Assembly (NCBI RefSeq): GCF_044324875.1
Contig: NZ_CP172185.1
Length of the DNA: 64,000 nucleotides
Origin: Escherichia coli
GTDB taxonomy: Bacteria > Pseudomonadota > Gammaproteobacteria > Enterobacterales > Enterobacteriaceae
Reading direction: 5' to 3' (one strand)
Under the pieces are notes generated by a model. It worked only from the letters and a program-made list of their open reading frames with translations. It did not search any database and had not been told where the DNA came from. The position numbers were made by a program, and so were the translations under genes. Below, piece by piece: positions 1,972-24,498 of this stretch; position 1 is the first letter of the stretch; the number at the start of each line of letters is the position of its first letter.

Positions 1972-3659
1972 TGAAAAACGTTTTATGTGAAACCGCCTCC
2001 GGGCGGTTTTGTCGTTTATGGAGCGTGAGGAATGGGTAAAGGCAGCAGTAAGGGGCATACCCCGCGCGAAGCGAAGGACAACCTGAAGTCCACGCAGTTG
2101 CTGAGTGTGATCGATGTCATCAGCGAAGGGCCGATACAAGGACCGGTGGATGGATTAAAAAGCGTGCTGCTGAACGGTACGCCGGTGCTGGACAGTGAGG
2201 GGAATACCAATATATCCGGCGTCACGGTGGTATTCCGGGCCGGTGAGCAGGAGCAGACGCCGCCGGAGGGATTTGAATCCTCCGGCTCCGAGACGGTGCT
2301 GGGTACGGAAGTGAAGTACGACACGCCGATTACCCGGACCATCACGTCGGCAAACATCGACCGTCTGCGCCTGACCTTCGGTGTGCAGGCACTGGTGGAA
2401 ACCACCTCAAAGGGGGACCGGAATCCGTCGGAAGTCCGCCTGCTGGTTCAGATACAGCGTAACGGTCGCTGGTTAACGGAAAAAGACATCACCATTAAGG
2501 GCAAAACCACCTCGCAGTATCTGGCCTCGGTGGTGGTGGGTAACCTGCCGCCGCGCCCGTTCAGTATCCGGATGCGCAGGATGACGCCGGACAGCACCAC
2601 AGACCAGCTGCAGAACAAAACGCTCTGGTCGTCATACACCGAAATCATCGATGTGAAACAGTGCTACCCGAACACGGCACTGGTCGGTGTGCAGGTGGAT
2701 TCGGAGCAGTTCGGCAGCCAGCAGGTGAGCCGTAATTATCATCTTCGCGGGCGCATTCTGCAGGTGCCGTCGAACTATAACCCGCAGACGCGGCAATACA
2801 GCGGTATCTGGGACGGAACGTTTAAACCGGCATACAGCAACAACCCGGCCTGGTGTCTGTGGGATATGCTGACCCATCCGCGCTACGGCATGGGGAAACG
2901 TGTTGGCGCAGCGGATGTGGATAAATGGGCGCTGTATGTCATCGGCCAGTACTGCGACCAGTCAGTGCCGGACGGCTCTGGTGGCACGGAGCCGCGCATC
3001 ACCTGTAATGCCTGGCTGACCACACAGCGTAAGGCGTGGGATGTGCTCAGTGATTTCTGCTCGGCGATGCGCTGTATGCCGGTATGGAACGGGCAGACGC
3101 TGACGTTCGTGCAGGACCGACCGTCGGATAAGGTGTGGACCTATAACCGCAGTAATGTGGTGATGCCGGATGATGGCGCGCCGTTCCGCTACAGCTTCAG
3201 CGCCCTGAAGGACCGCCATAATGCCGTTGAGGTGAACTGGAGTGACCCGGATAACGGCCAGGAGACGGCGACAGAGCTTGTGGAGGACACGCAGGCCATT
3301 GCCCGTTACGGTCGTAACGTCACGAAGATGGATGCCTTTGGCTGTACCAGCCGGGGGCAGGCACACCGCGCCGGGCTGTGGCTGATTAAAACAGAACTGC
3401 TGGAGACGCAGACCGTGGATTTCAGCGTGGGTGCTGAAGGGCTTCGCCATGTACCGGTGCAAAATGGCATCTGAATCGATCGCAGTTTGGCATTCGAATC
3501 GATCATGATTTGGCATCCATCTCCGATCACAGTTTGGCATCACAATCGATCACGATTTGGCATGCTTCCGATCATTGATTGGCATCCTGCCAGTCACTCC
3601 GGGAATTAACTCTTTTCACCACAGTCTCCATTGCCGTGTTTAAACCAGTGGAGACGTCA

Positions 3660-5225
3660 ATGTCCAGAAAGAGAAAATCCAGGAGCACTATGGAAACCTG
3701 TTTTAAGATCCTTCAGCTCAAGTTCGACAAGAAGCTGACTAACCGTTGTATCGGACTGACGTTACACATCAGCGCCTCAACCGTTTTTGAGGTTCTTGCC
3801 CGCTTCAAAGCCTCTTCTCTGTCATGGCCATTACCTGCTGATATATCCCATGACACGCTGGAGAAACTCATTTTTCCGCCCAAAGACACCTTTGCATCAG
3901 AGCTTGTAATGCCTGACATGTTGTACTTCGATACGGAAATGAGAAAACCAGGTGTGACGCGGCAACTGTTGTGGATGGAATACAAGGCACAGGCGGGTAA
4001 CAAAGCGATGGGATACTCGCACTTCTGCCGTTGCTACCGGGAGTGGAAAAAAACGCGACGTCTCTCCATGCGCCAGGAGCATCGTGCCGGCGAAAAGCTT
4101 TTTATCGACTTCTGTGGTCCTACGGTTCCTGTTATTAATCCGGACACCGGTGAGATACGCCGCGTGGCAATCTTCGTGGCCGTAATGGGGGCGTCCAACT
4201 ATACCTACGTTGAAGCGTGCGAAGGTCAGGACATGATGTCATGGTTAAATGCCCACAGCCGTTGCCTGACCTTCCTGGGCGGCGTACCGAAGCTGCTCAT
4301 CCCCGATAACCTCAGAAGCGCAGTGAAAAAGGCCGATCGATATGAGCCTGTCATCAACGACAGTTATCAGGCACTGGCTGAGCACTATGGCACGGTTATC
4401 ATCCCGGCCCGACCACGCAAACCTAAAGATAAACCAAAAGCAGAAAACGGCGTCCTCATCGTTGAACGATGGCTTCTTGCCCGCATCCGTAATGAAACCT
4501 TCCACACGCTCAGGGCGCTGAATGCGCGCCTTAGGGAGTTACTGACAGACATGAATAACCGGCCAATGAAGGGGTACGGCAATCAAACCCGTGCAGAACG
4601 CTTCCGCATACTGGATGCGCCAGCACTCTCTCCGCTGCCTCTGGCACCTTATGAATACACGGAATACAAAGCTGTGAAGGTTGGCCCTGACTACCACGTT
4701 GAATATGCCCGTCACTGGTACTCCGTTCCACACGAACTGGTCGGTCAGCGTCTGTCACTGAAGGCGGGGCAGTCGGTGGTACAGCTCTGGCACAAGGGGC
4801 AGTGTGTGGCGCAACATCCGCGCAGCACACATGAATATAAACACACAACCAATCCGCTTCACATGCCAGAGCGCCACCGGCAGCACGGGACATGGACACC
4901 GGAACGCCTGATCGAGCAGGGAAAACGTACGGGCCCGTCCACAGGCCGGGTGGTTGAATCCATGCTGAAGGCAAAACCCCATCCGGAACTGGCTTATCGT
5001 GCAGTTCTGGGGCTGCTGGCACTTCAGAAAAAATACGGCCCGGAACGGCTGGAAAAGGCCTGTTACGTTGCCCTGCACTATAACGCCCCTGACAGACGCT
5101 TTATCGACAATCTGCTGCGTCACCATCGGGAGAACCTGGAGCTTCCATTATCCCGCCAGGGCGAACAACATCCGGCATATGCTTCAGAGCATGAAAACCT
5201 GCGTGGTCCGGGCTACTACCACTGA
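3660..5225 (+). CDS. istA: IS21-family transposase IstA
   Basis: About 520 aa with N-terminal HTH region (...LSWPLPADISHDTLEKL...) and an IstA-like central/C-terminal region; start chosen at ATG 3660, upstream alternative start possible. Confidence 0.75.
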   Translation: MSRKRKSRSTMETCFKILQLKFDKKLTNRCIGLTLHISASTVFEVLARFKASSLSWPLPADISHDTLEKLIFPPKDTFASELVMPDMLYFDTEMRKPGVTRQLLWMEYKAQAGNKAMGYSHFCRCYREWKKTRRLSMRQEHRAGEKLFIDFCGPTVPVINPDTGEIRRVAIFVAVMGASNYTYVEACEGQDMMSWLNAHSRCLTFLGGVPKLLIPDNLRSAVKKADRYEPVINDSYQALAEHYGTVIIPARPRKPKDKPKAENGVLIVERWLLARIRNETFHTLRALNARLRELLTDMNNRPMKGYGNQTRAERFRILDAPALSPLPLAPYEYTEYKAVKVGPDYHVEYARHWYSVPHELVGQRLSLKAGQSVVQLWHKGQCVAQHPRSTHEYKHTTNPLHMPERHRQHGTWTPERLIEQGKRTGPSTGRVVESMLKAKPHPELAYRAVLGLLALQKKYGPERLEKACYVALHYNAPDRRFIDNLLRHHRENLELPLSRQGEQHPAYASEHENLRGPGYYH

Positions 5226-5241
5226 CAGAAGGAACAACAGT

Positions 5242-5997
5242 ATGAGTGATAACCTGTTAAACAAACTGACCCAACTGAAACTCCCGGCGATGGCCGGGAG
5301 CCTGATACGGCAGCGGGAAACGCCTCAGACCTACGACGAACTGTCGTTCGAGGAAAGGCTGACGCTGCTGGTTGATGACGAGCTTCTGAGCAGGGAAAAC
5401 AGCCGTGTGGCACGGTTGAGAAAAAATGCCGGCCTGAAATACCAGGCAACACCGGAAGGGCTGCGCTATCCGGCCTCAAGAGGTCTGCGGGCTGAACAGA
5501 TGAGAGAACTGCTGAACGGCCACTACATAACCCACAGGAAAAACCTGCTGATAACCGGTCCGACAGGATGTGGCAAGAGCTGGATAGCCAATGCGCTGGG
5601 CGAACAGGCATGTCGACAGAAACACAGCGTCCGGTACTGTAGAACCGGGCGATTACTGGAACAACTGGCTCAGGGACGTGTTGATGGCAGCTGGCTGAAA
5701 TATCTGAAACAGTTGCAAAAAATACAGGTTCTAATCCTGGACGATCTGGGGCTGGAACAGTTAAGTAACGCCCAGTGTAATGACCTTCTGGAGCTCATAG
5801 AGGATCGTTACGGACAAAGCAGCACGATAGTGGTAAGCCAGTTCCCGGTAGATAAATGGCATGGTCTGATGGAGAACCCAACAACAGCAGATGCCATCCT
5901 GGACAGACTGGTACATAACTCACACCGAGTGGTCCTTCAGGGAGAGTCACTGAGGAAAAATCCCCCGGTAGTGGAAAGCAGCGAAAAAACGCGTTAA
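5242..5997 (+). CDS. istB: IS21-family helper ATPase IstB
   Basis: 251 aa; Walker A GPTGCGKSWIANALG; Walker B LILDDLG; typical IstB size and position after istA. Confidence 0.85.
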   Translation: MSDNLLNKLTQLKLPAMAGSLIRQRETPQTYDELSFEERLTLLVDDELLSRENSRVARLRKNAGLKYQATPEGLRYPASRGLRAEQMRELLNGHYITHRKNLLITGPTGCGKSWIANALGEQACRQKHSVRYCRTGRLLEQLAQGRVDGSWLKYLKQLQKIQVLILDDLGLEQLSNAQCNDLLELIEDRYGQSSTIVVSQFPVDKWHGLMENPTTADAILDRLVHNSHRVVLQGESLRKNPPVVESSEKTR

Positions 5998-8218
5998 AAA
6001 GCGGTAGAAAAAGTTAAGTTCCCGGTTGATCGAATGGATGCGAATCGCTGATCGGACTTCGATGCCAATCCGTGATCGAATAGAGCGGAATACGCATACC
6101 GGGCGATGTCATTGAAATCTGTGATGATGACTATGCCGGTATCAGCACCGGTGGTCGTGTGCTGGCGGTGAACAGCCAGACCCGGACGCTGACGCTCGAC
6201 CGTGAAATCACGCTGCCATCCTCCGGTACCACGCTGATAAGCCTGGTTGACGGAAGTGGCAATCCGGTCAGCGTGGAGGTTCAGTCCGTCACCGACGGCG
6301 TGAAGGTAAAAGTGAGCCGGGTTCCTGACGGCGTTGCCGAGTACAGCGTGTGGGGGCTGAAGCTGCCGACGCTGCGCCAGCGCCTGTTCCGCTGCGTGAG
6401 TATCCGTGAGAACGACGACGGCACGTATGCCATCACTGCCGTGCAGCATGTACCGGAAAAAGAGGGCATCGTGGATAACGGGGCACACTTTGACGGTGAC
6501 CAGAGCGGCACGGTGAATGGTGTCACGCCGCCAGCAGTGCAGCACCTGACTGTCGAAGTCACCGCAGACAGCGGGGAGTATCAGGTACTGGCCCGCTGGG
6601 ACACGCCGAAGGTGGTGAAAGGCGTGAGTTTCATGCTTCGCCTGACCGTGGCAGCGGATGACGGCAGTGAGCGGCTGGTCAGCACGGCCCGGACGACGGA
6701 AACCACATACCGCTTCAGGCAGCTGGCGCCGGGGAACTACAGGCTGACAGTCCGGGCAGTAAATGCCCGGGGGCAGCAGGGAGACCCGGCGTCGGTATCG
6801 TTCCGGATTGCCGCACCGGCAGCGCCGTCGCGGATTGAGCTGACGCCGGGCTATTTTCAGATAACCGCCACGCCGCATCTTGCCGTTTATGATCCGACGG
6901 TGCAGTTTGAGTTCTGGTTCTCGGAAAAGCGGATTACCGATATCAGGCAGGTTGAAACCACAGCCCGTTATCTTGGTACCGGAAGTCAGTGGCTTGTCTC
7001 CGGCCAGAATATTAAACCTGGCCATGATTATTACTTTTATATCCGCAGTGTTAACACTGTCGGTAAATCGGCATTCGTGGAGGCAGTCGGTCGGGCGAGT
7101 AATGATCCTGCCGGTTACCTTAATTTTTTCAGGGGGGCGATAAATAAAACGCATCTGGGACGGGAGATCAATGAACGCATTGATGCCTCTGCACGGCGCA
7201 CTGAAGTTGAGCAACTGGAGAATGCGATTAACCGCGAAATGACGCAGCTGGAGAATGCGATTAACCGCGAAATGACGCAGCTGGAGAAAGATGTGAGGCA
7301 GCGTGCGGAGCGTGATATCGCAGAGGTGACGAAAAAAATCACGGCGTCTGAAAACAGCATAACGGAACTGGTGGCGAAAAAGAGCGGTGAACAGTCGCTG
7401 GCCATTGCGAAAGTCGACAGGAAAGTTGACAGCGTGAGCAGTGAAATCCGGCAGACAGTAAGCAGGAGCACGGAGGAGAACAGCCGACAGATAGCGCAGG
7501 TCAGGCAGTATGTTGATGATAAAAGTGCGCAAATAAGTACTGTTGTGGCGAAAAAGAGCGGTGAACAGTCAATGGCCATTGCGGAAGTTGACAGAAAAGT
7601 TGACAGGATGGGCAGCGAAATCCGGCAGACAGTAAGCAGGAGCACGGAGGAGAACAGCCGACAGATAGCGCAGATCAGACAGTATGTTGATGATAAGGGA
7701 AGTCAGATCAAACAGAGCACGGATAAAAAACTGGGATCCTGGAATGCCAGCATTGAGCAGATACAGAAAGTTCAGGAGGACACGCGCCGGAACCTGAACA
7801 GCATGTGGGCTGTGAAGCTGCAGCAGACACGGGATGGACGTCTCTATATTGCAGGTATTGGTGCCGGAATCGAAAATACGTCTGACGGAATTCAGAGTCA
7901 GATCCTGATGCAGGCAGATCGTATTGCGATGATTAACCCGGAAAATGGCAATACAACACCTTTGTTTGTGGCTCAGGGTGATCAGCTGTTCATGAATGAT
8001 GTTTTCATGAAAAAACTGACCGTGGATTTTGCCAGAGTGACGGGAGATATCCGGTCAGATAATTTTCATTCCGGTAGTCCGGGGTGGCGTTTATCAAGAA
8101 ACGGCAGCCTTGAAATTAACTCAGGAAGGCCCGGCGCAGGCCGCCTGTTTTTCAATGGCGAGCGAATCGACGTATATGACGATAACAATGTGTTAAGAGT
8201 ACGACTGGGGAGACTGTA

Positions 8219-8479
8219 ATGTTCGGAGTCCGGGTATGGCGCAAAGGGCGCCTTGTGACACATGAAATAAACCCAACAGGGGTGCTGGATGTGATCACTG
8301 AAGGGACGGGGCAGCGTTCTTATACTCCTTTGCAGGGCTGGCGTCTGGAAGTCTGTTCACCGGCCATTCTGATTAACGGTCAGGGAAGTCATACCAGTGC
8401 CAGTGTATCCGGCTGGACAGTGCACTATGCCAACACAAGCTGGCTAAGACCCGTGCTGGTCATGATAAGGGGGATCTGA
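8219..8479 (+). CDS. Hypothetical phage protein, translationally coupled to J (TAATG overlap)
   Basis: 86-aa ORF starting on the J stop codon; no motif I can recognise. Confidence 0.4.
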   Translation: MFGVRVWRKGRLVTHEINPTGVLDVITEGTGQRSYTPLQGWRLEVCSPAILINGQGSHTSASVSGWTVHYANTSWLRPVLVMIRGI

Positions 8480-9483: not shown

Positions 9484-10812
9484 ATGGCGGCTGTAAAAAT
9501 TTCAGGCGTGCTCAGGGACGGAACCGGAAAACCGGTACCGGGATGCATTATTGAGCTGAAAGCGAAGAGAACCAGCGAGACAGTCATCGCCACGACAGTG
9601 GCTTATGGCATGCCGGAAGAGACGGGGAGTTACAGTATGGATGTGGAGCCAGGAATATACAGGGTGACACTCAATACAGAAGGTTACCGTCCTTCGTATG
9701 TGGGAGATATCGTGGTCAGGGAGGATTCTTCACCGGGAACACTGAATAAATTTCTGATGGAGATGGAAGATGCTCCTTATTATCCGAAGGCGTTGTCAGA
9801 GCTGGAGGCTGTGGTGCAGTCCATACTGCACAGAGCAGAGTCCGCGGCATCTGAGGCGGAGGAAGCCCGGAAGCGAGCAGCATCTGCCCGGGGACCACGA
9901 GGAGAGAAAGGGGATACCGGCGCTCGTGGTGAAAGAGGCATTACCGGGCCACAGGGGCCAAAAGGTGAAACAGGAGCACGTGGCCCGGCAGGACCACAGG
10001 GACCAAAAGGTGAAACAGGTGAACGCGGTCCGGCAGGTCCACAGGGACCAAAGGGCGATACAGGTGAACGCGGCCCGGCAGGTCCACAGGGACCAAAAGG
10101 TGAAACAGGTGCACGTGGTCCGGAAGGTCCACAGGGAGCAAAAGGTGAAACAGGTGAACGCGGCCCGGCAGGTCCACAGGGAGCAAAGGGCGAAACAGGT
10201 GCACGTGGTCCGGAAGGCCCTCAGGGTCTGAAGGGAGAAAAGGGTGAGCGAGGAGAAAAAGGCCCTAAGGGGGATAAAGGAGATCCGGGAGGTCCACAGG
10301 GACCAAAAGGTGAAACAGGTGAACGTGGCCCGGCAGGTCCACAGGGACCAAAAGGTGAAACAGGTGAACGTGGCCCGGCAGGTCCACAGGGACCAAAGGG
10401 CGATACAGGTGAACGCGGTCCGGCAGGTCCACAGGGGCCAAGAGGGTATACAGGTGAACGCGGGCCGACAGGTCTACAGGGGCCAAGAGGGTATACAGGT
10501 GAACGCGGGCCGGCAGGTCCACAGGGGCCAAGAGGAGAAGCGGGGCGGCCAGCGAGCGTCGGAAGTGTTTATTCCGTGGGGTCTTATGTTCTGGGGATCA
10601 TAGAACGAAATCATGAGATAACAAATACCCGTCAAATACCCGGGTATCGTATCAGACAGGCCGTTATTGTGTCGTCGTCATCGGATAAACTTACAGATAT
10701 CCGCTTTTTATTTGGCAATCCTATGCTTGGTACATGGATGTTATGCACAACTAACATGGCGGTGAATAATATCAGTGGGACGATTTGGGGCCTGTTTCAG
10801 AGAATACTGTGA
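9484..10812 (+). CDS. Prophage side tail fiber protein with collagen-like Gly-X-Y repeat region
   Basis: N-terminus [29 protein letters not shown]... resembles the Stf N-terminal domain of E. coli prophages; about 220 aa of GxY triplets ([19 protein letters not shown]...). Confidence 0.8.
9886..10548 (+). repeat. Tandem, roughly 45-bp coding repeats (collagen-like Gly-X-Y) inside the tail fiber gene
   Basis: Repeated [15 protein letters not shown] units at nucleotide level; the ORFs in other frames and on the opposite strand over this stretch are repeat artefacts. Confidence 0.8.
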
Positions 10813-11002
10813 CAGGGGGAGAAATGAATGAAGGTCGATAAAATCACGTCACCAGTGTGGGCTGACAGGGGTCATACGACCATAAACTGTATAGTGAAGT
10901 TTTCAGACGCGGAAACAGAATGTGTATTTACAGCAAGTGCGGATGATCCGTAACCGGCTCATTTAAACCGTCTGGTCTGTTTCCTCCGGCTCTACAAAAA
11001 TA

Positions 11003-11680
11003 ATGTCCATCATTTTTAATGGACACTATCGTATGAAACACCGGACCTGGATCACTGAAGCTTTACGTCTTCACTTTGAAGAACATTTACCCCGGGTTGT
11101 GGCCGGGCGTCGCCTGGGTGTACCAAAATCAACAGTTTGTAGTATGTTCGTGCGCTTTCGGAGAGCTGGCCTTTCGTGGCCTTTGCCCGCAGGCATGTCG
11201 GAGCAGGAACTTGATGCCTGCCTTTACGGACAATTTTCCACGGTACCAGTCGTACGTCCTGAAAGCACCGTTATATCCGAAGCCCCCGTGGTAAAAAAAC
11301 GTCCCCGGCGGCCCAACTTCCCTTATGAGTTTAAAATCGCCTTAGTGGAGCAGTCACTGCAGCCCGGAGCCTGTGTGGCGCAGATCGCCCGGGAAAACGG
11401 AATCAACGATAACCTGCTCTTCAACTGGCGCCATCAATACCGGAAAGGTGGCCTGCTGCCTTCCGGAAAAAATATGCCGGCACTGCTTCCCGTGACGTTA
11501 ACGCCGGAGCCGGATAATAAAATCCCGGCCCCCGCACAGGAACCAGAGCAGATAAATACACCGTCCGACAGTCTGTGTTGTGAGCTGGTTCTGCCGGCCG
11601 GAACTCTCAGGCTTAAAGGTAAACTGACGCCGGCGTTATTACAGACACTTATCCGCGAAATAAAAGGGAGCAGCCACTGA
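11003..11680 (+). CDS. tnpA: IS66-family accessory protein (orfA/TnpA) with N-terminal HTH extension
   Basis: C-terminal part ...PNFPYEFKIALVEQSLQPGACVAQIARENGINDNLLFNWRHQYRKG is IS66 orfA-like; N-terminal part carries an LSWPLPA HTH-like motif. Start codon uncertain. Confidence 0.7.
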   Translation: MSIIFNGHYRMKHRTWITEALRLHFEEHLPRVVAGRRLGVPKSTVCSMFVRFRRAGLSWPLPAGMSEQELDACLYGQFSTVPVVRPESTVISEAPVVKKRPRRPNFPYEFKIALVEQSLQPGACVAQIARENGINDNLLFNWRHQYRKGGLLPSGKNMPALLPVTLTPEPDNKIPAPAQEPEQINTPSDSLCCELVLPAGTLRLKGKLTPALLQTLIREIKGSSH

Positions 11681-12027
11681 TGATATCTCTCCCTGCAGGT
11701 TCGCGTATCTGGCTGGTTGCAGGTATCACCGATATGCGAAATGGCTTTAACGGCCTGGCATCAAAAGTTCAGAACGTCCTGAAGGATGACCCGTTCTCCG
11801 GACACCTGTTCATCTTCCGCGGACGCCGGGGTGACCAGATAAAAGTGTTGTGGGCTGACAGTGACGGACTGTGCCTCTTCACCAAACGCCTGGAGCGGGG
11901 CCGCTTCGTCTGGCCAGTCACCCGTGACGGCAAGGTGCACCTTACTCCGGCTCAGTTATCCATGCTTCTTGAAGGTATCAACTGGAAGCACCCGAAACGA
12001 ACGGAACGCGCTGGAATCCGCATATAA
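11680..12027 (+). CDS. tnpB: IS66-family TnpB (Orf2)
   Basis: 115 aa MISLPAGSRIWLVAGITDMRNGFNGLASKVQNVL...; overlapping start with orfA stop. Confidence 0.85.
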   Translation: MISLPAGSRIWLVAGITDMRNGFNGLASKVQNVLKDDPFSGHLFIFRGRRGDQIKVLWADSDGLCLFTKRLERGRFVWPVTRDGKVHLTPAQLSMLLEGINWKHPKRTERAGIRI

Positions 12028-12046
12028 CCCGTTGTAAAGTGAGGAT

Positions 12047-13618
12047 ATGGACACCTCACTTGCTCATGAGAACGCCCGCCTGCGGGCACTGTTGCAGACG
12101 CAACAGGACACCATCCGCCAGATGGCTGAATACAACCGCCTGCTCTCACAGCGGGTGGCGGCTTATGCTTCCGAAATCAACCGGCTGAAGGCGCTGGTTG
12201 CGAAACTGCAACGTATGCAGTTCGGTAAAAGCTCAGAAAAACTTCGTGCAAAAACCGAACGGCAGATACAGGAAGCACAGGAGCGAATCAGCGCACTTCA
12301 GGAAGAAATGGCGGAAACGCTGGGTGAGCAATATGACCCGGTACTGCCATCCGCCCTGCGCCAGTCTTCAGCCCGTAAACCGTTACCGGCCTCACTTCCC
12401 CGTGAAACCCGGGTTATCCGGCCGGAAGAGGAATGCTGTCCTGCCTGTGGTGGTGAACTCAGTTCTCTGGGATGTGATGTGTCAGAGCAACTGGAGCTTA
12501 TCAGCAGCGCCTTTAAGGTTATCGAAACACAACGTCCGAAACAGGCCTGTTGCCGGTGCGACCATATCGTGCAGGCACCAGTACCTTCAAAACCCATTGC
12601 ACGCAGTTATGCCGGAGCGGGGCTTCTGGCCCATGTTGTCACCGGGAAATATGCAGACCATCTGCCGTTATACCGCCAGTCAGAAATATACCGTCGTCAG
12701 GGAGTGGAGCTGAGCCGTGCCACACTGGGGCGCTGGACAGGTGCTGTTGCTGAACTGCTGGAGCCGCTGTATGACGTCCTGCGCCAGTATGTGCTGATGC
12801 CCGGTAAAGTCCATGCTGATGATATCCCCGTCCCGGTCCAGGAGCCGGGCAGCGGTAAAACCCGGACAGCCCGGCTGTGGGTCTACGTCCGTGATGACCG
12901 TAACGCCGGTTCACAGATGCCCCCGGCGGTCTGGTTCGCGTACAGTCCGGACCGGAAAGGTATCCATCCACAAAATCACCTGGCCGGTTACAGCGGTGTG
13001 CTTCAGGCCGATGCTTACGGTGGTTACCGGGCGTTATACGAATCCGGCAGAATAACGGAAGCCGCGTGTATGGCTCATGCCCGGAGAAAAATCCACGATG
13101 TGCATGCAAGAGCGCCCACCTACATCACCACGGAAGCCCTGCAGCGTATCGGTGAACTGTATGCCATCGAGGCAGAGGTCCGGGGCTGTTCAGCAGAACA
13201 GCGTCTGGCGGCAAGAAAAGCCAGAGCCGCGCCACTGATGCAGTCACTGTATGACTGGATACAGCAACAGATGAAAACACTGTCGCGTCACTCAGATACG
13301 GCAAAAGCGTTCGCATACCTGCTGAAACAGTGGGATGCACTGAACGTGTACTGCAGTAATGGCTGGGTGGAAATCGACAACAACATCGCAGAGAACGCCT
13401 TACGGGGAGTGGCCGTAGGCCGGAAAAACTGGATGTTCGCGGGTTCCGACAGCGGTGGTGAACATGCGGCGGTGTTGTACTCGCTGATCGGCACATGCCG
13501 TCTGAACAATGTGGAGCCAGAAAAGTGGCTGCGTTACGTCATTGAACATATCCAGGACTGGCCGGCAAACCGGGTACGCGATCTGTTGCCCTGGAAAGTT
13601 GATCTGAGCTCTCAGTAA
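12047..13618 (+). CDS. tnpC: IS66-family transposase TnpC
   Basis: 523 aa; N-terminal coiled coil, Cys cluster CCPACGGEL...CCRCDH, DDE-type catalytic region. Confidence 0.85.
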
Positions 13619-14475
13619 ATATCAATACGGTTCTGACGAGTCGCTTACGATGATCCTGAGTCTTACGGTCGTGAAATATTTGAAGCCTGCATAAGAGGTG
13701 ATGCAGGGCCGGTAGGTGAGTACCGGGCAAATGATGATATGGCTGTGGAAGAAGCACGCAGGATGAAAAACGCGGAGATAAATGCCTGGCGTGATGCGAT
13801 GGAGGCGTCAGGGTATGTTTTTGAGCACAGAGGACGGAAATGGGATTATGGAAAGGAAACCATGACACGTCTTGGAATGTCGGCATCAGCGGCCAGAGGC
13901 GGTGTGTTGCCGGAAGGATTTTTCTGGACGGACGCAGAGAATAATGATGTACCGATGACGGCAGATGAACTGATATCCCTGAGTGATGCTGCTGGTAAAG
14001 CGATGTTCAGGAAAGGCCTTGAAATACATATAAGGCAAAGGGAGATGAAAAAGGCAATAGCAGAACTGAGTGACAGTGAAACCATTCTGGCGTACAGGGT
14101 TGGATGGTGAAACTGATAAAAAAACCCCTCTGAAAATTCTGTCAGAGGGGGGCAAGGATCTATATTTATTATGCGGTAATGCTTTCACTCCGGTAATTAA
14201 TTTCAGTGATTAACTGCTTTCGATCAATAAAGGAATTGCAAAAAGGTGATCTTGTTCACGACATTGTGGATGATAATATGCCTGATGTCTGAATCCGGAA
14301 ACAGTGATCTGGCGGGTTTCATGTGAAGTTGACGGATAAAAAATCCGCACGACCAGACAGACGTGCGGTTTACGAAATTCGTAACAAGAGGCTTTTCTAG
14401 GGATCACGTGGTGCGTGCCACGTGAAATTTTTGTAGCGCAAAATGTGTAATGTGTAAATACAAGGAAGGAAAAAG

Positions 14476-14805
14476 TTAAATCGGTGGAAGTCCATACCGG
14501 GAACGTGCACGGTTACATGCTTCGTTTTCAATACCATTTTCACCAGACATGGCAAATTCCCGGCACGTTGATGAACGGTTTTCGTAGATGGTACAGCTCG
14601 CTTCTTTACCTGGTGTTCCTGCAAGGGCAATACATCTGGGGTTTTTCTGGTTTGTACCGATCATGCATCGGTGCAAAGGCGATACTTGTTCAGTAAGTCT
14701 GGCTGGAATGGTGCCGCCAGCATCGTCGGCTTCGGCCCAGTAAAAAGAGACGCGGAAAAATGCACAACAGGCACCACACGTTATGCATGGATTTGGATTG
14801 CTCAT
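14476..14805 (-). CDS. Small Cys-cluster protein (CxxCxxCC, YkgJ/UPF0153-like putative zinc or iron chelating domain) at the prophage edge
   Basis: 109 aa [28 protein letters not shown]...; motif C-x2-C-x2-C-C plus further conserved Cys. Confidence 0.5.
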
Positions 14806-15166
14806 AATTCACCACAGCTATAAATTATAAAGAAAACCGCAGCATGTCGTATGCAAGAACGTGCTGCAGCTGGCTGGTTAACTTTCGATAGTGCGAGTAT
14901 TGAATGATTTCCAGCCGTTACCGATTTTATATAACTGCAGTGGAATTATTCAACACAGGCAAAACGGAATAAGCTGAGAAAAAAGCGTACTTTCCCAATC
15001 TGGGGCAAATCACGTCTGAATGACACCTGACAACAGATGGTGGCCTCAAGAAGGCTTGGAATATTCTTCTTTAATGTTATGTAAATTATTGATTTTTCGT
15101 GTACGATTTTAAGACATTTATTCCAAGAAAAATTTTTAACTCTTTGATTTTTCGACTCTGTATCAT

Positions 15167-15228
15167 CGGTCTCGAAAACCGGAGTAGGGGCAACTCTACC
15201 GGGGGTTCAAATCCCCCTCTCTCCGCCA
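15167..15228 (+). other. Prophage attachment site (attR): 62-nt 3' fragment of the tRNA-Ser (CGA, serU-type) gene without the 5' half
   Basis: CGGTCTCGAAAACCGGAGTAGGGGCAACTCTACCGGGGGTTCAAATCCCCCTCTCTCCGCCA matches the 3' part of tRNA-Ser from the anticodon stem onward; no complementary GGAGAGA acceptor strand upstream. Confidence 0.75.
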
Positions 15229-15895
15229 CTTTATCAATGACTTATCTCCCGACTTCCCGCCTTGCTTTTCCTAAACAGAACAATCGTAGAATATTCTTGA
15301 AGGGTTAGATCGTCACTGTTTTCTGTTCGATACTGTGACATTCAGCACTTGATTCGCTATGGATCTGACAGGAAGGTTTCGAGCGAAAATCTGCAATTAT
15401 TCAGTCGTTTTCTTATCGGTCACCATTATTCTTTTAGACATTGATCCTACAAAGCTGCCGCAAAGTTGGTGGTGGGAACTGAAGTTGCGTAGAGAAGTGG
15501 TCAATAATTGAGCAAAAAAAGGAACGCGGCCGTCAGATTAAAGCCGCGGGACAAAGTCCATAATTTCCAAGAGTTGTTGAATTTCCCAGCTTTTTTGAAA
15601 GCCTTCGTATCATACTAACAAGTAAAAAAGGTTTAAATACCAAAATTAACCTATATTTCTGGTTAGCTTTACCATGACAGATGACTTGCTCCTGGAGACA
15701 TTGGCGCAGCCAGTCTGTATTGGTGAGTTGTGTATTTATTGTTCGCCGTTTTCTCAGTTTTTTCTACAGACATAATAAAAAAGACACGTCTCAAGCATGA
15801 GCGTGTCTGAGTTTGTCTTATTTATTTGTCTTGGTAAATTATTGTCGTTACTACCAGGCACTGTTCTGTTAAATAATTGAATCAGCGAAAAAAAA

Positions 15896-23870: not shown

Positions 23871-24498
23871 TATGTATTCCCTTGTGATTATAATCTTCAT
23901 GAATATATCAATAAGTGCCGTTATCCAAAAAAAAGCACATTTGGATACTATTCTATGAAGTTCATTTTATTTTAAAGATTACATGTAACAAATATATTTA
24001 AAAGATTTCAAAATGTTTCTAATCTATTTAATATAATTCAGAATTATGAATTCTAAATATAAATATTCATGAAAATTATAAATGTATATCAATATGTTAT
24101 GAGTTGAGCGGAAACATAGGGGGTATCAATGATTGTTGCGCCAAACGGCTGGTGTGATCACGCGCACATTAATGAAGGCATAAAAAAAGCCGGCATCATG
24201 CCGGCCCAAAAAAAATAAACAAGACGATAAAAGGCTAATAACGGAAGCATCATGACACAGAATAATAAAAAGGTATAATTGTAATCAGTGCTAATATATT
24301 GATTGAATGAATTAATAAAGCCGATATCAAAGATAAATAAAATCGCTCAAAACGATTTTTCCTGTATTCACTGCCGTTGCGCAAAAATTATCTATTTGTT
24401 CAAAAAATGATTGAGTCTTGACTGGCTCATCCAATGTGGAAAAATGTGACTTTTATCACATAATAGTACTAAGTCTGAATTTTCCGGGTTATCTCAAA

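Follow-up and report, generated by a model that had tools for sequence, protein, structure and literature searches.

An intact ykgJ-like gene at the attR end of a lambda-like prophage at serU in Escherichia coli, probably part of a mobile lineage that moves with its own leader

The window analyzed here, a 64,000-nucleotide stretch of an Escherichia coli genome (GCF_044324875.1, NZ_CP172185.1), opens with the right arm of a lambda-like prophage, which occupies its first 15.2 kb and in which the tail genes L, K, I, and J are present. On the plus strand these genes run in the order L, K, I, J and are followed by a collagen-repeat tail fibre gene and then by a gene of the DUF4376 type, upstream of the ykgJ-like ORF that is the subject of this report (Table 1). 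The gpJ tail-tip gene is found in two parts (2032-3474 and 6159-8219), with an IS21-family element (istA 3579-5225, istB 4999-5997) between them. The DUF4376 gene, whose undamaged 191-aa version is seen in the E. coli genome AR_0085 and in the comparison loci L097-L104, carries an IS66-family element, and this insertion constitutes the break in collinearity with AR_0085, the two flanks overlapping by 8 bp. Because IS21 splits gpJ and IS66 splits the tail-fibre-type gene, the prophage is now defective. Within the tail-fibre gene (9484-10812), a long run of collagen-type repeats at 9946-10539 aligns to itself and to AR_0085 at many 45-bp offsets.

The prophage boundary is marked by the 3′ end of a tRNA-Ser gene (serU), a fragment that matches the annotated tRNA-Ser of prophage-free strains at 100% and that is the displaced tRNA end expected at attR; ARAGORN found no intact tRNA within the window. 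Inward of this fragment lies the attP arm of serU-integrating phages. Phages ev099, PhiR70_1, and mEp332 show 94-98% identity from position 14972 onward, with the stretch 14972-15300 being 97-98% identical to their att region, and the serU prophage ends of APEC O1 and KFu019 match the arm at the same 94-98% level from 14930 on. The ykgJ-like ORF is missing from ev099, PhiR70_1, and mEp332 despite the common att arm. It thus occupies the position of an accessory gene ("moron"), being inside the prophage, after the tail-fibre genes, and dispensable, as serU phages without it exist. An earlier interpretation made from the DNA letters alone (the sequence-only reading) had placed the ORF on the opposite strand between the tail-fibre genes and the attR of a serU prophage, and the ORF map and serU fragment bear this out. 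The same reading called it the only sizeable ORF between tfa and attR; it is indeed the sole ORF there with family support, as no other in 14111-15166 has any, but the presumed tfa is the IS66-truncated DUF4376 gene.

Past attR, the chromosome continues with zinT, msrQ, and msrP, zinT being 1.1 kb from the ykgJ-like ORF. The cytochrome b561 homologue yodB is missing between the serU attR and zinT (15676-15895), where about 995 bp of AR_0085 are swapped for 220 bp, as in APEC O1. Farther along the window, at 45477-48236, an IS1380-family (ISEcp1-type) transposase gene (45477-46739) is directly followed by a CTX-M extended-spectrum beta-lactamase gene (47027-47902); this unit has a chromosomal insertion point near yedE, yedD, and amyA.

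Table 1. Features of the prophage end at serU, with the related remnant in E. coli K-12
Feature	Coordinates	Strand	Basis or remark
IS66-family element within DUF4376 gene	10950-13651	+	tnpB 11680-12027, transposase 12047-13618
DUF4376 tail-fibre-type gene, C-terminal 123 codons, truncated by IS66	13739-14110	+	PF14301 E 6e-21; PHROG tail fibre families
Terminator-like palindrome, end of tail-fibre transcription unit	14404-14425	+	consensus scan; 50 nt past ykgJ stop codon
ykgJ-like CDS, 109 aa, CxxCxxCC cysteine-cluster protein	14476-14805	-	ATG-started ORF, PF03692, K-12 YkgJ identity
Shine-Dalgarno-like GGTGA	14809-14813	-	3 nt before ATG; read from sequence
Conserved non-coding core, ~105 bp	14827-14929	.	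homologous to ykgJ/ecpE intergenic region and phage relics
Terminator-like hairpin, ~10-bp stem, 5′ of CDS	14837-14871	-	RNA fold
Sigma-70 promoter-like site TTGAAT-18-TAAAAT	14924-14953	-	consensus scan
attP arm of serU-integrating phages	14930-15166	.	identity to phages and prophage ends
tRNA-Ser (serU) 3′ 62 nt, attR repeat and prophage boundary	15167-15228	+	exact pattern match, single copy in window
ykgJ pseudogene remnant, E. coli K-12 DHB4 ompW-yciC spacer	L091 1379-1468		90 bp

The protein encoded by the ORF contains nine cysteines, four of them arranged as C7-x2-C10-x2-C13-C14 (CITCGACC) and the others at positions 47, 58, 71, 81, and 97. A search with Pfam profile HMMs retrieved PF03692 (CxxCxxCC, putative zinc- or iron-chelating domain) at 42.7 bits against a cut-off of 23 (E 9.4e-11), with residues 6-98 spanning profile positions 1-85 of 85. 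This is no chance ORF; the gene is real and intact. The protein was aligned with 107 diverse homologues (841 hits at E ≤ 0.001 in a library of 1.84 billion proteins), and across the resulting 108 sequences conservation is complete or no lower than 90% at C7, C10, C13, C14, C58, C71, C81, and C97, whereas C47 is not conserved. An AlphaFold2 model built from the same alignment reached a pLDDT of 94.5 and a pTM of 0.84. No relatives in the PDB were found by sequence or fold, a BFVD fold search with the model gave no significant viral structural match, and searches of NCBIfam and PHROG returned no matching family. The sequence-only reading, which had described a YkgJ-type cysteine-cluster protein with the CITCGACC motif, further conserved cysteines, and a poorly characterised family, is thereby upheld on each count, all eight family-conserved cysteines being present.

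On the ORF alone the finding is ordinary: the gene is already routinely annotated, the public record of the exact protein being named "YkgJ family cysteine cluster protein", and truncated relatives have been known since 2000. What the earlier interpretation overlooked is the close paralogy to the resident ykgJ of E. coli, the conserved leader that corresponds to attB-in-PP_2, and the phage-derived look of the resident copy.

The start of the gene is preceded by a conserved non-coding core. DNA homology to the K-12 ykgJ locus covers the gene down to its stop codon plus about 125 bp ahead of the start, and BLAST against phages revealed core matches in 197 phage records, including lambda (a relic at 24162-24259, in the b region), HK97, HK633, and many Stx phages. 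In these records the core directly follows the tail-fibre genes, and core relics that have no ykgJ beside them are widespread. Identity amounts to 84% with the K-12 intergenic region and 88-93% with the Sp15, HK97, and Stx copies, and, for copies with ORFs that match at just about 82%, conservation over most of the core reaches about 95%. The distal part (14872-14929, comprising the first hairpin, the loop, and TAAAAT) is nearly invariant, though the adjacent ORFs have a dS of about 1; att-site matching, a cis-regulatory leader, and gene conversion are candidate explanations. Rfam found nothing on the core at the K-12 ykgJ locus and, in 14300-15400 of the window, only sub-threshold hits, to CssrB and tRNA-like ones on the serU fragment. 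The match to CssrB, a Shigella chromosomal sRNA, covers 14803-14868 on the plus strand and so runs opposite to the start of ykgJ and its leader hairpin; it scores 37.6 bits (E 8e-6), the cut-off being 76, and has no counterpart at the K-12 ykgJ locus.

As an RNA read in the direction of ykgJ, the core is predicted to fold into two hairpins, the first of which is long-range (GGCUGG...CCAGCC); the segment between the two is nearly invariant across copies. When 17 copies were each folded singly, the second hairpin was stable in 15, at about -9 to -22 kcal/mol. At least five variants of its stem occur (GCGGUA/UACCGC, GCAGCA/UGCUGC, GCCGC/GCGGC, CAGACACGC/GCGUGUCUG, and CAGACAUG/CAUGUCUG), with pairing kept by compensatory changes. 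Followed by a U-rich tract (14820-14836), this second hairpin looks like an intrinsic terminator, one that would terminate intS in HK633, dinI in Sp15, and, on the chromosome, the ecp operon. The sole promoter-like site (14953-14924) is separated from the start codon by the terminator-like hairpin, which counts against the explanation favored below. Its -10 hexamer, TAAAAT, is the distal invariant end of the core and is present in all copies; further terminator-like sites lie downstream of the gene. No SOS box (CTGT-N8-ACAG, at most one mismatch) was detected upstream of the window gene. At the ribosome-binding region, GGTGAATTATGAGCAAT is conserved in K-12 and the other phage-type copies. Elsewhere in the window, on the minus strand at 49780-49832, a second terminator-like hairpin with the same loop sequence lies right after the stop of a 159-aa ORF (49831-50310); the profile hit (E 1.4e-5) covers the hairpin part of the core only.

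A counterpart of the core is known as an integration site. Lambda-like prophages were found inserted at a 96-bp attB-in-PP_2 inside other prophages, and this site, together with up to 309 bp of flank, was traced to the ykgJ/ecpE intergenic region; Nakamura et al. (2021) concluded that attB-in-PP_2 came "from the chromosome" (PMC8112680). Judged by homology, the window core is this published site, and it likewise lies at a prophage end. At the window locus the core is single and uninterrupted, with no prophage integrated into it. The GenBank record of HK633 (L005 2523-2603) labels the core "attP". In argW-integrated prophages of the IntS type, however, tail fibre, core, and intS stay contiguous after integration, so the core is not the crossover site of the IntS integrase. 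The label is probably an annotator's inference, and the true attP of IntS-type phages probably lies on the other side of intS. An arrangement in which the core acts as an HK633-type attP with aberrant-excision geometry is set aside in view of the same contiguity.

These observations raise the possibility that the DNA matters and not the protein, the core being kept as a landing site (attB) for prophage-in-prophage stacking and the ORF being its flank. Such an account would fit the lambda-like prophages that sit in attB-in-PP_2 with ykgJ-like flanks (PMC8112680), the higher conservation of the core than of the ORFs, and the ykgJ-less relics in the 197 phage records, lambda and HK97 among them. 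We consider it somewhat unlikely nonetheless, given that the core in the window is unoccupied, that it does not serve as the crossover site in IntS-type phages and prophages (HK633, argW), that copies at the potB site retain ykgJ without a detectable core, and that the compensatory stem changes speak for a hairpin in RNA or DNA and not for a fixed protein-binding sequence.

The gene itself recurs at prophage ends. The window protein is 87% identical to K-12 YkgJ over its full length and without gaps, and extra intact 109-aa YkgJ genes are present in prophages of other genomes at dusA (L007) and potB (L008, L009). A common layout of tail fibre/DUF4376 (plus strand), ykgJ (minus strand), and prophage end or att is observed at dusA, potB, and icd; the dusA copy is additionally accompanied by an upstream dinI, like that of Sp15. 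When a single genome of each species was scanned, the five nearest relatives (76-86% identity) proved not to be in the customary chromosomal setting. In Escherichia sp. E1V33 and E. whittamii the gene adjoins icd, which is the attachment site of e14-type phages. In Citrobacter braakii (L012) a degraded prophage with prohead protease, tape-measure remnant, and Lom lies on one side of it and a 3′ fragment of icd on the other. Among the phage-borne alleles and K-12, pairwise dN/dS ranges from 0.04 to 0.07 at dS values of 0.45-2.3, which in these sequence comparisons reads as a strong signature of purifying selection, although the low dN/dS could have built up while the alleles were chromosomal in other hosts.

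It is also conceivable, if quite unlikely in our estimation, that the gene is a neutral passenger, an old fossil of host DNA at the prophage end that is intact by chance and benefits neither phage nor host. Decay is certainly seen among its relatives. At the same serU site in the APEC O1 lineage and in KFu019, which have different tail modules and the same ykgJ-core-att arm, the gene has become a pseudogene; O111 strains and about 50 Stx-phage records have copies cut down to about 36-66 codons; and no full-length copy was found in phage records from E. coli (0 of 50,697), so that no isolated E. coli phage is seen to carry one. Moreover, the carrier prophage is itself decaying, and E. coli already has a resident ykgJ. 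Against chance survival stand at least four divergent intact alleles that keep the 109 codons, the eight cysteines, and the start region at dS of about 0.8-2.3, the presence of the exact protein on 557 public contigs though IS elements hit neighbour genes, and a sibling copy in essentially the whole species (4956 of 5426 genomes). In L101 (3288-5903) and L102 (4462-5670), IS66-/IS256-family elements lie just upstream of the identical-protein gene, in or next to the core/att arm, the insertion in L101 ending 97 bp from the start codon.

Whether the gene travels with serU prophages or is chromosomal in prophage-free strains, a question raised by the sequence-only reading, is answered by its distribution. 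All eight contexts read of the exact protein show the arrangement zinT-(yodB)-att-YkgJ-DUF4376-tail fibre-gpJ and thus place it at the serU prophage end, none was found at prophage-free serU loci, and the prophage allele is present in both yodB+ and yodB- chromosomes. A native chromosomal gene that only seems to lie inside the prophage, a reading with nothing more in its favor than closeness to chromosomal genes such as zinT, is refuted: relative to the displaced 3′ piece of the tRNA, the gene falls on the side of the prophage, it is bordered by phage DNA of the attP arm and of tail-fibre genes, prophage-free serU loci match only the tRNA part, from 15166 onward, and among 5426 complete E. coli genomes just two (AR_0085 and TUM1886, 99.3% identity) contain the whole 14200-15300 stretch.

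The explanation that we favor, and regard as probable, is that the ORF is an intact prophage-borne member of a mobile ykgJ lineage that moves with its leader and encodes what is likely an iron-linked cysteine protein. The ykgJ-like gene is the last one before the attR of a lambda-like prophage at serU, the prophage having since become defective. In this proposal the gene and its own leader of about 105 bp, comprising the conserved long-range hairpin and the intrinsic-terminator-like hairpin, would move together as one module, and in related prophages that leader serves as a secondary attachment site (attB-in-PP_2). The eight conserved cysteines would hold metal, as an iron-sulfur center or, less likely, zinc, and the window copy would be repressed together with the host copy when iron is scarce, through RyhB. 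Directly supported by the sequences are the existence of the ORF, its family, its location, its tie to the serU prophage, the repeated layout in further prophages, and the signature of strong purifying selection. Weighing against the proposal are the decayed copies elsewhere, the finding of neither a full-length copy in the E. coli phage records nor a PHROG match, and the defective state of the carrier prophage.

The iron link draws first on the K-12 paralogue. Ribosome profiling has shown that K-12 ykgJ is translationally repressed by the iron-sparing sRNA RyhB (PMC4666370). The start region of the window copy keeps an 8-nt UGAGCAAU at the AUG that is complementary to AUUGCUCA of RyhB, and retention of this complementary sequence at the start codon means that the host's iron-sparing control is probably retained as well. 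In a test of the seed-region duplex, for which the RyhB sequence was checked against Rfam, the predicted duplex had an energy of -18.2 kcal/mol, a value reached by 8 of 500 shuffles. A further line of argument is by analogy: the FliB motif CX4CX3CC binds an oxygen-sensitive [4Fe-4S] cluster (PMC8598068). On our best reading the window protein is most likely a small cytoplasmic Fe-S protein, with a zinc protein being less likely. In addition, biofilm fitness and filamentation have been tied to K-12 ykgJ by a TraDIS study. For the window copy, we infer metal content, expression, RyhB control, and any benefit to the lysogen; that phages keep the gene under strong constraint and that RyhB controls the K-12 copy together argue for a real iron-linked cellular role of YkgJ.

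The ancestral setting of the gene appears to be a different one. In 67 of 80 Enterobacterales species loci, ykgJ lies between a divergent ompW and yciC-yciB, and 7 more loci show this context in part; the window copy, at a serU prophage end, does not have the ompW-yciC position of a vertically inherited orthologue. A search of the ompW-ykgJ spacers with a core profile found nothing in the 74 ompW-context loci. An intact ompW-linked ykgJ is kept by E. albertii, Klebsiella, Citrobacter, and some 70 further species. In E. coli, K-12 included, the ompW-yciC spacer holds only a 90-bp remnant, annotated "YkgJ family..., missing N-terminus", and the working ykgJ is situated between yagU and ecpE. The remnant 3′ of K-12 ykgJ is annotated as a tail fibre assembly protein (Pfam Caudo_TAP, E 2e-4, just under the cut-off), and since this remnant flanks ykgJ, the resident locus has the prophage-end layout of tfa-ykgJ-core. 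Rfam reports IS009 in the K-12 yagU/ykgJ spacer. In a neighbor-joining tree based on 109 residues, all non-ompW copies, including that of K-12, constitute one clade (68% bootstrap) nested among the ompW-linked orthologues; this clade has 12 sequences, namely 11 target copies and that of K. indica (L013).

Together, these data suggest that the resident ykgJ of E. coli is phage-derived. With moderate confidence, we propose that the gene was captured once, long ago, and then lived on phages, and that the copy resident in E. coli is a prophage end that became fixed; in this scheme we infer the direction of transfer. The fuller scenario we consider about evenly balanced between right and wrong: an ompW-linked ykgJ would have been captured once by a lambdoid phage and travelled with the core as the last gene ahead of attR, the ancestral copy would have decayed to the 90-bp stub as one such prophage end was fixed in the yagU-ecpE interval, the window ORF would be the still-mobile sibling, and the core, by now scattered over prophages and the chromosome, would be a landing site for other phages. 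The gene ompW is itself a phage attachment site.

The added value of the locus is this evolutionary context: a ykgJ that moves together with its core, and a probable phage source for the resident gene of E. coli. If the phage-origin reading holds, the chromosomal source locus of attB-in-PP_2 may itself be a prophage end. The locus would also offer a clean case of a gene leaving its host for temperate phages, diversifying there under purifying selection, and apparently replacing the ancestral chromosomal copy in a major species.

Among known systems, one likeness is to DpdM (DUF3109), a phage preQ1 methyltransferase whose authors called E. coli YkgJ a homologue (bioRxiv 10.1101/2023.04.13.536721). 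DpdM is classed in another Pfam family, and the virulent Vibrio and Cellulophaga phages that encode it have 7-deazaguanine pathways, of which there is none here. FliB, the flagellin lysine N-methyltransferase of Salmonella, resembles the window protein in its N-terminal cysteine motif ending in CC and in having eight conserved cysteines (PMC8598068). The link is one of analogy only; the spacing differs (CX4CX3CC in FliB, CX2CX2CC here), and FliB is a much larger, oligomeric enzyme. The ompW-linked YkgJ proteins of Klebsiella pneumoniae, E. albertii, and Citrobacter are alignable over residues 1-109 and have the same cysteines. They differ in their lower identity (61-77%), in their longer mechanical ORFs (137-144 aa), in having no detectable core upstream, and in their fixed chromosomal context, ompW(-)/ykgJ(+)/yciC/yciB.

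H0002 of VT1-Sakai (Sp15), annotated as "similar to E. coli K12 YkgJ", and the attB-in-PP_2 flanks of Stx/EHEC prophages present the same module in the same orientation, at the same place by attR, and with the core. H0002-type copies are found at other integration sites (yehV/mlrA, yecE, ompW, ydfJ, and ssrA), are truncated to the N-terminal 36-66 codons, and have dinI and an SOS box ahead, whereas the window copy is full length and has neither. Compared with K-12 YkgJ (b0288, between yagU and ecpE), the window copy is located at a serU prophage end, does not have the downstream IS009/EcsR2 tail-fibre-assembly remnant, and has diverged to 81.7% nucleotide identity (dS about 1.06), with a leader-hairpin stem that differs but is compensated. 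It nonetheless shares with the K-12 gene the length of 109 aa, the conserved cysteines, the ribosome-binding and start region, and the hairpin leader of about 125 bp.
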